DNA of 34,558 nt from an uncultured Eubacteriales bacterium (GCA_963513115.1 CAUPPN010000001.1:1-34558); one strand, 5' to 3'. Counted from the stretch's first letter, positions 1 to 7,470 are shown. The notes: generated by a model from the letters alone, not told the origin. Translations and numbers: made by a program.

Positions 1-234
1 TATATTAACTACTTATTTGGAAAAAGCAATCTTAAATGGGGAAACTATGTTGGAGAATTTCCATTTGATAATGGAGACTTGACTGTAATATATGAAAATC
101 AAAGAGCAGGAAGAATGAATGTAAGAAACTTTTCTAAAAAGTTTAAATCAGAACTTATTGAACTTACTTCATATATTGCTGAAGCATCAAAATCTAAACC
201 GAGTAAGTTAATGGATATACTAATGAAAAATTAA
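1..234 (+). CDS. 3' end of an unidentified protein (5' end cut by the window edge); first visible gene of the Tad-like cluster
   Basis: Frame 1 is open from base 1 to TAA at 232-234 (...KPSKLMDILMKN*), which is 13 nt before the next gene's ATG. No family recognised by eye. Confidence 0.4.
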   Translation, partial: YINYLFGKSNLKWGNYVGEFPFDNGDLTVIYENQRAGRMNVRNFSKKFKSELIELTSYIAEASKSKPSKLMDILMKN

Positions 235-247
235 GGAAGGAATAAAA

Positions 248-1084
248 ATGGCAATAGTAACATTTTGGAGTCCAGAAGAAGATAAAGTAAATCAAACCGC
301 ATCAATAATTGCATCAGCATTAGAGATGGGAATTGAAAGAAATTTAAAAATATTATTAATAGATATGACATGTGGTTCTGACACAATGCAAACGGCCTTT
401 ACTAAAAAAGAAAAGAAATCTAGAGGATTATTTAGTAAACCAATACAAGAAGGACTAAATGCAGCATCAGGAACAGATGCATTAATTACAGCAGCTACAA
501 GTAACAAAGTAGCGCCAGAAATTGTAAAAAGCTATACTGTACCAATATTAAAAGATAGATTAGACATATTATATGGGATAAGATCAAAAGATAGACAAAC
601 ATTTGAAAATGCATTAACAGATTTTATTAGAGTATTAGAAATAGCAGATAAATACTATGATATTGTATATGTTGATTTAGAAAAAGGCGAATTAACAGAA
701 AACATAAAAAGCATATTAAAAATGTCAGACTTAATTGTATACCCATTTGAGCAACAAATGAGCCAAATAGAAAAGTTTGAAACACTTTGGGGAAAAGATG
801 AACTTTTTTCACCAAAACAAAAAGTGATACCACTTCTTACAAAAGAAGATTCGTTTTCAAAATACAATTCAGATAATATTGCAAGAAAAATAGGAATGAA
901 ACCTGGAATGTGTTCAATTACATATAACACACTATATATGGAAGCAATGCAAGAAGGAACAATAATAAACTTATTTTTCACATTAAATAATGATGAAGCA
1001 TCATATAGGAATAATCATTTTTTAAAAACAATACTTGATTTAAATATGCTAATAATTGATAGACTTCAACAATTTAATTTTTAA
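248..1084 (+). CDS. ParA/MinD-superfamily TadZ/CpaE-like pilus-assembly protein with a degenerate Walker A
   Basis: GGAAGG RBS 7 nt upstream. The layout matches CpaE-type proteins: N-terminal strand-loop (VTFWSPEEDKVNQTASI), then KILLIDM, then YDIVYVDLEKG. KGGxGK[ST] is replaced by EEDKVNQT. It lies directly upstream of a CpaF-type ATPase. Confidence 0.5.
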   Translation: MAIVTFWSPEEDKVNQTASIIASALEMGIERNLKILLIDMTCGSDTMQTAFTKKEKKSRGLFSKPIQEGLNAASGTDALITAATSNKVAPEIVKSYTVPILKDRLDILYGIRSKDRQTFENALTDFIRVLEIADKYYDIVYVDLEKGELTENIKSILKMSDLIVYPFEQQMSQIEKFETLWGKDELFSPKQKVIPLLTKEDSFSKYNSDNIARKIGMKPGMCSITYNTLYMEAMQEGTIINLFFTLNNDEASYRNNHFLKTILDLNMLIIDRLQQFNF

Positions 1085-1201
1085 AATAATAATAAGAAAA
1101 TATATAAAAATAAAACATAAAATATATAAAAATACAAAATATAAAAAAACAAACAAATAAAATACATAAATATACAAAAGTAAATAATAATAGGGGAAAA
1201 T

Positions 1202-3142
1202 ATGAATTTTTTTATAAACGTGGCTTTGATCTTCGTAATAATAATTGCATTCATTGTACTTGTTAAAAATACAATTAAAAAGAACAAAGAATCAATTGAA
1301 GAAACAGAAGTAAATGTAGATGATAAAACATATACATTAGAAATGTTAATAGAATTTATTAAAAGAAGATTAGACGAAATAACAAAAATAAATCTATATG
1401 ATATAGGATTATCAGAAGAAGAATTAAACAGAAGAAAAACTAAAAAGTATGAACTTAAGAAAGCCCTTAAGGGATGTACTTATGGTGACGTTAATGATAA
1501 GAAGTATGTTAAAGAATTAATGTATGACCTATTATATAAAGAATATGGAGTAAATGAGGTAAATATATCTAAAGCAATACCTTTTGATATACCATCACTT
1601 TTAACTCCACAAGATAAATTTGATATCATAATACATCAGTATAAAAAAGAATTCGGATATGAAGCATTAAATGAATATATTAAAAAATATGATTTGGCTA
1701 GATTAAAATATGTACAAGGCGCTTCAAAGCCATGTTATGTAATAACAAATGAAGAAATAGACGAAACATATGAAAAAGAAAACTTTTCTTTAACATTTGA
1801 AGATAAGTTATCTGTTGTAGTACAAAGAATATACCAAAGATATAAAGGATATAGTGCAATAGATGAAATAAGAGACATGAATATAGACGGTGTATCTGGT
1901 GGAGTATCAGGACTTCCTGAAAGCTTTTTAAGCCAGGTTGCACAAACAGATGCAGATTATTTAAAACAAGCAATGGATAATAAGGTACCAAGAGCATGTG
2001 ACAGTATTTGGATATTCTTCCATGGTATATCAATAAGACTTGCATTTTTGTCATTTGGATCTGAAAGCGAATTAAAAAGAGTATGTCAAAATATATATAA
2101 GTACAATAATCCAGGACAGTTATCTGACACAAATGGATATAAGATCAATGAAATGAAAGACGGTTCCAGAGTTGTTGTAGTTAGACCATCATTTTCAGAA
2201 ACTTGGGCATTTTTCGTAAGAAAGTTTGACGTTCAAAAAGCAACGCTAGAACAAATAGTACATGGAAGTGACGAACAAAACTCTGCAGATGCAATTGAAC
2301 TTTTAAGATACTTAGTTAAAGGTGCAAGAATTATAGCACTAACAGGTGAGCAGGGTACTGGTAAAACTACAATGCTTATGGGTATGATTGAAAGTATATA
2401 TGAAACAATGAACTTAAGAATTCAGGAAACTGCATTCGAGCTTCACTTAAGAAAAATATATCCAACTAGAAATATATTATCATTTAGAGAAACTGATACA
2501 ATATCTGGACAGGAAGGACTAGACGTTCAGAAAAAGACAGACGGTTCTGTTAATATCGTAGGAGAGGTTGCAACAGACCCAGTTGCAGCTTGGATGATTC
2601 AGTCAGCACAGGTTGCATCTAAGTTTACATTATTTACTCACCACGCTAAGACTTTCCCAAATTTAATAATGGCACTTAGAAACTCACTACTTAAAATAGG
2701 AATGTTTAATGATGAAAAGACAGCAGCAGAACAGGTAGTTGGAGTATTAAATTTTGATATACACTTAGTAAAAGACTTTAAAGGTAGAAGATATATTGAA
2801 AGAATTACTGAATGTATACCAGTTGAAGAAAAAAATGAATATACATTTGATCATAGAAATGAAAAAACAATTGAAGGAAAACTAGATAAGTTTATAGATA
2901 ATGCTACAATATATTTTTCAAAAACAACAAATGCAGAATTATATAAGTATAGGAATATAATGGAATTCAAAGATACTGGATATATTTTCCCAAATCCTAT
3001 ATCTGAAGATAATATAAAAGAGATGAGGAACAATATGGACACATCTGACATATCTAAATTTGATGACTTTATATATAAGATGTGGAATATAAAACCACCA
3101 AAGATGCCAGGAATAGATACGGATGTTGTAGAAGAGTTTTAA
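1202..3142 (+). CDS. CpaF/TadA-family (VirB11/T2SS-E superfamily) secretion ATPase with an N-terminal TM anchor and a long N-terminal extension
   Basis: AGGGGA RBS. Walker A GEQGTGKTT (nt 2345-2371), an acidic box near NIVGEV and a His-box-like FTHHAKT. The N-terminus MNFFINVALIFVIIIAFIVLV is strongly hydrophobic. Confidence 0.85.
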   Translation: MNFFINVALIFVIIIAFIVLVKNTIKKNKESIEETEVNVDDKTYTLEMLIEFIKRRLDEITKINLYDIGLSEEELNRRKTKKYELKKALKGCTYGDVNDKKYVKELMYDLLYKEYGVNEVNISKAIPFDIPSLLTPQDKFDIIIHQYKKEFGYEALNEYIKKYDLARLKYVQGASKPCYVITNEEIDETYEKENFSLTFEDKLSVVVQRIYQRYKGYSAIDEIRDMNIDGVSGGVSGLPESFLSQVAQTDADYLKQAMDNKVPRACDSIWIFFHGISIRLAFLSFGSESELKRVCQNIYKYNNPGQLSDTNGYKINEMKDGSRVVVVRPSFSETWAFFVRKFDVQKATLEQIVHGSDEQNSADAIELLRYLVKGARIIALTGEQGTGKTTMLMGMIESIYETMNLRIQETAFELHLRKIYPTRNILSFRETDTISGQEGLDVQKKTDGSVNIVGEVATDPVAAWMIQSAQVASKFTLFTHHAKTFPNLIMALRNSLLKIGMFNDEKTAAEQVVGVLNFDIHLVKDFKGRRYIERITECIPVEEKNEYTFDHRNEKTIEGKLDKFIDNATIYFSKTTNAELYKYRNIMEFKDTGYIFPNPISEDNIKEMRNNMDTSDISKFDDFIYKMWNIKPPKMPGIDTDVVEEF

Positions 3143-6756: not shown

Positions 6757-6776
6757 AAATAGTTAAAGGAATTAAT

Positions 6777-7394
6777 ATGACAAAAAATCATAAGACAAAT
6801 TTTTTTATAATAATTACAACAATAATTGTAGTAGCAATAATTGCTATTGCAATTTTTGCATATAATTACTCAAGTGTATTTAAAAAATATAATACATATA
6901 ACTTAGATACAAAAGAAATACTTTCATATAATGAGATATTATCAGGTGTTGAATTAATTACTGTTATGAATAAGATAGATAATATAAATAGAAAAAACAA
7001 AGATAAAGTGGAAACAGATAAAATAATTGAAGAACATGAAAAAAATAAAAAATTATTTAGTAAAAACAAAAATGATAGTAATAATGCTGATAATAGTGAT
7101 AATGAAAATATAAATGAAAACGATTATATGAAAATAACAGTTAAAATTTTAATGCCAAATGAAAAATATAATCCAATGTCCTTAAGTAGAGAAGAAAAAG
7201 AAAAAGAAAAAAATAGTAATATAAAAAAGGAAGAAAAGTATATAACACTTGATATGGAAAAGATATTAAAAAATGGAATTACAAATTTTGCAGAATTATT
7301 TGGAAAGTCAAGATTTAGAAGGAAAAATGTTTCATATTATGATAATACAAATAATATAAGAGAAATAATATATATGAAAGAAGGTGAATATTAA
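6777..7394 (+). CDS. N-terminally anchored protein, paralogue 3 of 3, with a low-complexity N/D/K/E-rich centre
   Basis: AAAGGA RBS. TM segment FFIIITTIIVVAIIAIAIFAY. Carries the motifs SYNEILSGVELITVMNK and NNIREIIYMKEGE. Followed by a terminator. Confidence 0.55.
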   Translation: MTKNHKTNFFIIITTIIVVAIIAIAIFAYNYSSVFKKYNTYNLDTKEILSYNEILSGVELITVMNKIDNINRKNKDKVETDKIIEEHEKNKKLFSKNKNDSNNADNSDNENINENDYMKITVKILMPNEKYNPMSLSREEKEKEKNSNIKKEEKYITLDMEKILKNGITNFAELFGKSRFRRKNVSYYDNTNNIREIIYMKEGEY

Positions 7395-7437
7395 TATATA
7401 ATTTAATTAAAATAAATTAAATAATATTTAATACAAC

Positions 7438-7470
7438 AAAGAAGCATCGAATGCTTCTTTTATTTAATTT
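7438..7470 (+). terminator. Rho-independent terminator closing the Tad-like operon
   Basis: Perfect 10-bp stem AAAGAAGCAT / ATGCTTCTTT with a 3-nt loop (CGA), followed by a T-rich tract. Confidence 0.75.

Follow-up and report, generated by a model that had tools for sequence, protein, structure and literature searches.

The window analyzed here is a stretch of 34,558 nucleotides from an uncultured Eubacteriales bacterium (GCA_963513115.1, CAUPPN010000001.1:1-34558) at the start of contig C1, in an assembly of 0.89 Mb, 110 contigs, and 89% completeness. Its positions 1 to 7470, with a G+C content of about 26%, hold a single gene string, all on the plus strand, encoding two ParA-like proteins, a membrane-tethered secretion ATPase, a large membrane protein, and three small N-anchored proteins (Table 1). 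The original prediction, made from this DNA alone, had described a TadZ/CpaE-like gene, a CpaF/TadA ATPase, a TadB-TadC-like platform gene, three N-anchored small proteins, and a terminator, and the open reading frames (ORFs) agree with that order; the ParA-like gene tail at the very beginning was not mentioned there. Downstream of the terminator, a PBP1A gene starts at 7573. Apart from the ATPase, none of the proteins encoded in positions 1 to 7470 matches a Pfam or NCBIfam family. We found that the system is already known as the TANB77 pilus cluster (Kim et al. 2024, Nat Commun 15:10726; PMC11680825), and with a probability of about 0.75, the gene string represents the assembly-machine half (genes 928 to 934) of a tight-adherence (Tad)-like type IV filament cluster that is retained across TANB77, an order of gut Clostridia.

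Table 1. Features at the beginning of the window (aa, amino acids; TM, transmembrane; AF2, AlphaFold2; MEN, Met-Glu-Asn; gene numbers follow PMC11680825; a slash marks the junction after the putative leader)
Feature	Position	Strand	Basis
ParA/MinD-like protein 1, C-terminal 77 aa (gene 928, "TadZ")	1-234	+	5'-truncated ORF
ParA/TadZ/CpaE-like protein 2, 278 aa (gene 929)	248-1084	+	Profile matches; degenerate Walker A
A-rich spacer, 117 bp, inside the operon	1085-1201		Sequence
TM-anchored TadA/CpaF-like secretion ATPase, 646 aa (gene 930)	1202-3142	+	T2SSE, TIGR03819, CpaF profile
Platform, predicted tandem fusion of two TadB/TadC-like modules, 701 aa, ~8 TM helices (gene 931)	3235-5340	+	hhalign
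Pilin-like protein, 274 aa (gene 932 type), N-terminus MSSNIANA/LRIAGGMLLAILIV	5362-6186	+	MEN-pilin profile A6
Pilin-like protein, 180 aa (gene 933 type), N-terminus MENASRA/LIIAGAIFIGILIL	6214-6756	+	A6 member; AF2 model
N-anchored protein, 205 aa, K/N/E-rich middle, without MEN motif (gene 934 position)	6777-7394	+	ORF
Intrinsic terminator, 10-bp stem then T-tract; ends this part of the cluster	7438-7460	+	Stem-loop

The published work reported a run of 10 to 14 genes that is strongly conserved in TANB77 (122 of 129 species, ~95%) and is numbered 927 to 938 in HRGM_Genome_2725, CAG-245 sp000435175 (PMC11680825). Through structure comparison with the AlphaFold DB, its authors labeled the products CpaB, TadZ, CpaE, TadA/CpaF (with one TM helix), and seven "pilin-like" proteins, and assigned the first half of a 693-aa protein with 8 TM helices to TadC and the second half to TadB, while the function of 932 to 937 was, according to them, not inferable from sequence or structure (PMC11680825). 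Only recombinant protein 938 was assayed, which was reported to activate dendritic cells in a TLR4-dependent manner and to improve the anti-PD-1 response in mice (PMC11680825). The terms "peptidase," "prepilin," "TadV," and "motif" do not occur in the text of the paper, and the exclusivity of the cluster was examined among human-gut genomes only (PMC11680825). By comparing the window with a public CAG:245 scaffold (L080), we found that the ATPases are 75% and the platforms 55% identical, with reciprocal similarity, and gene order and sizes agree with Table 1 of PMC11680825.

Judged from its sequence, gene 930 encodes a secretion ATPase of the TadA/CpaF family. Its T2SSE score is barely above the cut-off (25.9 versus 24.9 bits), and it matches TIGR03819 (TadA) with an E value of 1.5e-7. 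A profile of 30 orthologues retrieved only the CpaF structures 8rkd, 8rjf, and 9e24 (E 2.7e-10, ~3e-10) and, weakly, VirB11, and the Walker A motif (GEQGxGKTT), the GEV Walker B region, and the His box align between this profile and CpaF. An extension of about 270 residues, which starts with a TM helix (residues 1 to 30), comes before the CpaF-like core. This protein is the sole T2SSE-family ATPase in the assembly.

The two ParA-like proteins weakly resemble ParA, MinD, and CapB and have degenerate P-loops; they supply the ParA-like TadZ/CpaE component of a Tad system. ParA-like protein 2 has no Pfam match, and its orthologue profile (A3) found the ParA-family ATPase 3ea0 (E 5e-4), CapB (E 3e-4), and Get3 in the PDB; the orthologue from locus L024 matches AAA_31 (5e-4) and a KGGVGR-variant AAA family (1.4e-3). 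The consensus N-terminus reads FWxxxxxxTGQT and lacks GK[ST]. The profile of ParA-like protein 1 orthologues (A4) is weakly MinD-like, with GAYDKTD at the P-loop position. The CpaB-like protein of 399 aa, encoded on another contig of the same genome (C91), contains a SAF domain (24.9 bits, Pfam cut-off 21) and scores 13 to 16 bits for TIGR03177 (CpaB), the cut-off of which is 71. When canonical Tad loci were searched with hidden Markov model profiles, the ATPase profile gave 10 matches and the TadZ-like profile A3 two weak ones; the profiles of the platform, the CpaB-like protein, ParA-like protein 1, and the pilin-like proteins gave none.

For the membrane protein of gene 931, a profile search against PDB chains returned no sequence match. 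We also used profile-profile alignment, with a TadB/TadC profile built from canonical Tad loci of other Clostridia. In hhalign, residues 9 to 335 and 389 to 697 each cover the full template, with probabilities of 84 to 85% and E values of 6 to 8e-6. Because both halves match TadB/TadC, the alignment supports a putative TadC-TadB-type tandem fusion, and the AF2 model is all-helical with a predicted local distance difference test score (pLDDT) of 76.5. In 12 of the 80 related loci compared below, the platform gene consists of two ORFs (~433 and 252 aa), with the break in the variable linker (L026, L047, L052, L055, L056, L069, L072, L074, L087, L093, L098, and L099); this is either a real separation of a TadC-like and a TadB-like protein or a recurrent frameshift. 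With the ATPase profile leading to CpaF and the platform halves to TadB/TadC, the original view of a divergent Tad-like (type IVc-like) module is supported.

Among at least 578 ATPase relatives found in a scan of species-representative genomes, we compared the best 80 loci. Their ATPases are 74 to 82% identical to that of the window, and all come from metagenome-assembled genomes of gut Clostridia, with names such as Clostridium sp. CAG:245, Ca. Scatovivens, Ca. Merdicola, and similar. The gene order is identical in all 80, and therefore the arrangement is not due to chance: a CpaB-like protein (~300 to 400 aa), ParA-like protein 1 (~230), ParA-like protein 2 (~279), the ATPase (~650), and the membrane protein (~692) are followed by six to eight N-anchored proteins, the final three of which have ~200, ~177, and 450 to 870 aa. 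Identity across the loci is about 77% for the ATPase, about 56% for the membrane protein, and about 30 to 35% for the ParA-like and small proteins.

In the genome of the window, this cluster is found in pieces. ParA-like protein 1 is split by contig ends, since tblastn with the L024 orthologue located its N-terminal 144 aa on C91 (3252-3683) and the C-terminal 77 aa in the window, leaving a gap of about 28 residues; the end of C91 carries the CpaB-like gene and then the head of ParA-like protein 1. In relatives, a Cof-type HAD hydrolase gene precedes the CpaB-like gene. The original suggestion that the pilin and peptidase could lie upstream of base 1 is excluded: on C91 and in more than 70 relatives, the CpaB-like and ParA-like genes are found there, with the HAD hydrolase before them. 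We found neither a Flp pilin nor a peptidase upstream, and no downstream proteins belonging to the TadE/F/G families. Contig C69 encodes, in order, a 137-aa MEN-type protein and proteins of 255, 174, and 783 aa, which are the counterparts of genes 935 to 938. In nearly all relatives with a long enough contig, these counterparts lie directly 3' of gene 934; here the terminator and PBP1A follow gene 934 instead, and therefore the cluster is split in this genome. On C69 (4653-5696, minus strand), the relocated second half is directly downstream of a large, repeat-rich surface-protein gene with a C-terminal membrane anchor. The spacer ahead of the ATPase gene is of low complexity, and more than 20 further contigs of the assembly carry stretches 70 to 80% similar to it.

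The module is not confined to TANB77 and occurs in cultured Clostridia. A profile search with the fused platform returned 1274 clusters (50% identity) among 1.84 billion representatives, 659 of them at E <= 1e-30. In a 300-genome sample of the class, the platform is present in six of seven genomes of the window's own family, in all three of a second family of the order, and in all ten of a family in another order. This last family includes Thermoclostridium stercorarium DSM 8532, in which the platform is Cst_c13610, labeled "hypothetical protein." Two loci of this family, L155 and L156, hold the whole module, comprising the CpaB-like protein, two ParA-like proteins, the TM-anchored ATPase, and the fused platform, as well as a MEN-type protein (MENSLKA/IIIGAG in L156) and a protein corresponding to the 177-aa one; their last gene is shorter. 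The platform also has relatives in Acetivibrio cellulolyticus, Alkaliphilus serpentinus, Abyssisolibacter fermentans, Anaerocolumna, and Vallitaleaceae. Since exclusivity had been tested in human-gut genomes only, carriers outside TANB77 do not contradict the published work (PMC11680825). In L155 (2040-3452) and L156 (16474-17886), a 470-aa Ser/Thr-protein-kinase-like gene stands directly before the CpaB-like gene, which hints at phospho-regulation of the module in this non-TANB77 lineage.

The subunits are likely to be the N-anchored proteins encoded downstream, together with the products of the four genes on C69. A MEN N-terminus was found in 301 proteins of the 80 loci and is shared by two of the three small proteins of the window and most of the downstream ones; MEN-type proteins are found inside the module only. 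The consensus is M-E-N-A-x-K-A-L-x-[IM]-A, followed by a hydrophobic run of about 20 to 22 residues. As the search pattern restricted positions 1 to 3, 7 ([AGS]), 8 ([LMIV]), 10, and 11, the frequencies there are partly set by selection (M1 100%, E2 96%, N3 100%, A7 97% with G 3%, L8 97%, A11 96%), while the free positions gave A4 in 92% and K6 in 71%. In paralogues and other lineages, the putative leader is 7 to 9 residues long and the A-L/I junction at its end is retained, as in the variant N-termini MSSNIANA/L, MDNNLSDA/I, MNDEMALRA/L, and MDFMGNKA/L.

The 274-aa protein matches the MEN-pilin profile A6 over its first ~80 residues (E 2.8e-17). The AF2 model of the 180-aa protein (6214-6753, pLDDT 80.3) shows an N-terminal helix of 53 residues (2 to 54), a canonical length for alpha-1, then a helix and a four-stranded sheet, a predicted architecture that is pilin-like. 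For the 205-aa protein, BLAST finds six recognizable relatives, and an N-anchored gene of ~143 aa occupies its position in most loci. The head (C-terminal) part of A6 also matches within larger proteins, G227:C3:106758-107078 (591 aa, E 2e-14) and G000:C2:4341-4556 (510 aa, 8e-3), encoded elsewhere in the genomes. This head may also be put to use by proteins from outside the cluster. Flp_Fap gave no Pfam match, and a regular-expression search found the G/xxxxE[YF] motif in no plausible ORF of the genome. The genome does contain a classical-type prepilin on contig C28, which an expression requiring Glu+5 misses and which tblastn found near a PilD-like gene; in or near the module, there is none.

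As the original prediction had stated, no prepilin peptidase is in view. The only gene of the genome with a Peptidase_A24 catalytic domain is unlinked (C11:1965-2711, 248 aa) and is flanked by genes for a HAD phosphatase and an Xaa-Pro peptidase; its product retains the two catalytic Asp motifs intact and has no bacterial N-terminal domain. None of the loci has an A24 peptidase in or adjoining the cluster. In this order (C11:1965-2711 here and L172:4089-4898 in a relative), the A24 catalytic domain is a stand-alone protein, while A24_N_bact (Pfam) is found in the PilD-like gene of the type IVa cluster, and the stand-alone gene is kept even in genome G056, which has no type IV filament ATPase. 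On C28 (8013-9616, minus strand), a 166-aa classical-type prepilin (…NDDG/MTVIGLVV…) and a 276-aa PilD-like protein, which scores for the A24_N_bact domain only, are directly followed by pyruvate kinase. The assembly contains no PilB, PilT, PilC, or PilM, and genomes of the same family have the full cluster; the C28 genes are a remnant of the canonical type IVa pilus cluster.

By analogy with known Tad systems, the proposed machine would work as follows. A hexameric CpaF-like ATPase, anchored in the membrane through an N-terminal helix of its own, may drive the single-chain TadC-TadB platform, with the two P-loop-degenerate ParA-like proteins serving as TadZ/CpaE-type scaffolds or localizers and the bitopic CpaB-like protein forming an extracytoplasmic collar. 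The machine would pull the N-anchored pilin-like proteins out of the membrane and polymerize them through their long hydrophobic N-terminal helices. Its subunits would be two of the three small proteins of the window, the 137-aa MEN-type protein, probably as the major subunit, and the three further N-anchored proteins on C69. A class III-like signal of 7 to 9 residues could be removed by cleavage at [KR]-A/[LI], and the unlinked 248-aa A24 peptidase may be the enzyme. The analysis itself shows the gene content, the orthology with the published cluster, remote homology for the ATPase and the platform, a predicted architecture like that of pilins, and the conservation of the motif. Filament formation, cleavage of the leader, the identity of the peptidase, and the role of the fiber are what we infer in this scheme, and adhesion would be the most likely function of the fiber.

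Several results weigh against this proposal. No filament has ever been seen, and the organisms are uncultured. The platform does not reach the score for Pfam T2SSF, and neither its model nor that of the pilin-like protein gave a Foldseek match in the PDB below E 0.1. In hhalign, the probability is 1.4% for MEN pilins against Clostridial Flp and at most 2.3% for the MEN, s3, s6, and "big" families against TadE and TadG, where the positive controls reached 74% (Flp-TadE) and 49% (TadE-TadG). N_methyl (Pfam) has no match, the MEN proteins lack Gly at -1 and Glu at +5 and have no Glu in the helix, and their conservation is highest over the first eight residues, an unusual property for a leader that is discarded. 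As for the peptidase, 80 of the 81 genomes in the order have A24, among them G056, a 100% complete genome with no ATPase, platform, or MEN protein; furthermore, members of the family carry a canonical type IVa cluster (PilM/N/O-pilin-PilD-PilB-PilT-PilC) that also needs a peptidase. Therefore, the peptidase is not assignable to the module, and we rejected the co-occurrence of A24 and the module as evidence of processing. The same comparisons uphold the original statement that the downstream proteins have no Flp, GFTLxE, or TadE motif (regular expressions, Pfam, NCBIfam, and hhalign), and its suggestion of a product other than a classical Flp fiber is supported as well.

What the machine does can also be read in other ways. 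Seven different N-anchored proteins per cluster, some of 550 to 870 aa, with no obvious abundant short Flp-like subunit, might suggest a short pseudopilus or piston like that of a type II secretion system, or a wall-spanning export device, in which the N-anchored proteins form a short stub, periplasmic or embedded in the wall, that pushes out other proteins and no long adhesive fiber is made. The extreme conservation of the membrane-tethered ATPase would suit such a device, as would the sortase and the LPXTG-like surface protein encoded in the vicinity of parts of the cluster. Nevertheless, the MEN-type gene of ~140 aa is present in one to three copies per locus like major pilins, the cluster contains no conserved candidate cargo gene, and Tad-type machines are known to build fibers, which together make export improbable. 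We consider it more improbable still that the module is a DNA-uptake (competence) pilus of Tad ancestry, as described in Micrococcus luteus and proposed in Liberibacter. The reduced genomes (0.9 to 1.8 Mb) and the near-universal presence of the cluster in the order (PMC11680825) would agree with such a pilus, as would ComEC in the relatives; however, ComEC also occurs in the module-less G056 and was not found in the window's own assembly; its presence is uninformative for this reading. Moreover, the relatives' separate PilB/PilT/PilC system with its retraction ATPase is better suited to DNA uptake, and linkage to comEA or dprA was not seen in the loci. A conjugation or type IV secretion reading was dropped, as VirB4, VirD4, and a relaxase are all absent from the locus, which is vertically conserved beside housekeeping genes.

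A further question concerns the MEN N-terminus. In archaea, class III signals follow the FlaFind pattern [KRDE][GA][ALIFQMVED][ILMVTAS]x3 and are cut by PibD/FlaK/EppA. The MEN sequences, with [KR]-A/[LI], fit this archaeal-style signal better than the bacterial one, and they match neither the bacterial G/FTLIE nor the Flp G/xxxxEY pattern. It could instead be that the MEN proteins stay uncleaved with a native Met-Glu-Asn N-terminus, in which Glu2 takes the role of the classical Glu5 and A24 serves other substrates. M1, E2, N3, and A4 are 92 to 100% conserved in the motif-selected set (the pattern restricted positions 1 to 3 and left 4 free), more than is expected of a leader, Gly at -1 is missing, and the retention of A24 is independent of the module. 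Yet the distance from Met1 to A/L varies from 7 to 9 residues, E2 is replaced in paralogues and other lineages, and the [KRND]-A-[LI] junction is retained, and we regard the uncleaved form as rather unlikely. Our preference is for a cleaved class III-type signal, at close to even odds. More tentatively, the MEN proteins may constitute a new class of bacterial type IV pilins with a 7- to 9-residue archaeal-style signal, lacking Gly-1 and Glu+5 and handled by a Tad-derived machine with a tethered ATPase and a single-chain platform, which has spread through Clostridia.

Given the reported effects of protein 938 (PMC11680825), what the TANB77 machine builds is of medical interest. The system itself is not new, but after the present analysis a canonical pilin or peptidase is no longer to be expected immediately beyond the contig end, and the conserved N-terminal signature of the putative subunits is defined. 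Unlike in the uncultured TANB77, the filament, the processing site, and the function are genetically testable in cultured Clostridia that carry the same module, and a new pilin class, if true, could be tested directly in the cultivable Thermoclostridium stercorarium and Acetivibrio cellulolyticus.

Comparison with known systems places the module as follows. The genes of the window, from the C-terminus of 928 to 934, are those of the TANB77 cluster in the same order and sizes, and the published reading is identical to ours, including the TadC/TadB fusion and pilin-like proteins without recognizable homology. The window differs in that 935 to 938 are apart on C69, with the terminator and PBP1A after 934, and the paper is silent on the peptidase, the signal motif, and carriers beyond gut genomes. 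With the canonical Tad/Flp systems (Caulobacter Cpa, Aggregatibacter Tad, Bifidobacterium breve Tad, and the loci L135, L140, and L141), the module shares the gene logic CpaB-TadZ-TadA-TadB-TadC-pilin-pseudopilins-large TadG-like protein, and in the canonical Clostridial loci the order is the same from TadZ to the large TadG-like protein; the peptidase is sometimes unlinked there too, and the ATPase of the window is closest to CpaF. In contrast to these systems, the ATPase has a TM anchor and an N-terminal extension of about 270 aa, TadB and TadC appear fused and escape Pfam, the ParA-like proteins number two and both have a degenerate P-loop, and the subunits lack the G/xxxxE[YF] and TadE motifs. 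The archaeal type IV pilins and archaellins differ from the MEN proteins, which have a bacterial host, a Tad-derived machine, a near-invariant leader, and a cleavage that is predicted. The stand-alone A24 peptidase of this genome, without the bacterial N-terminal domain, resembles the archaeal situation, and the MEN proteins share with the archaeal ones a short polar putative leader with a basic residue at -2, a small one at -1 (Ala, rarely Gly), and Leu or Ile at +1, as well as a hydrophobic stretch of about 22 residues in which Glu+5 is not required.

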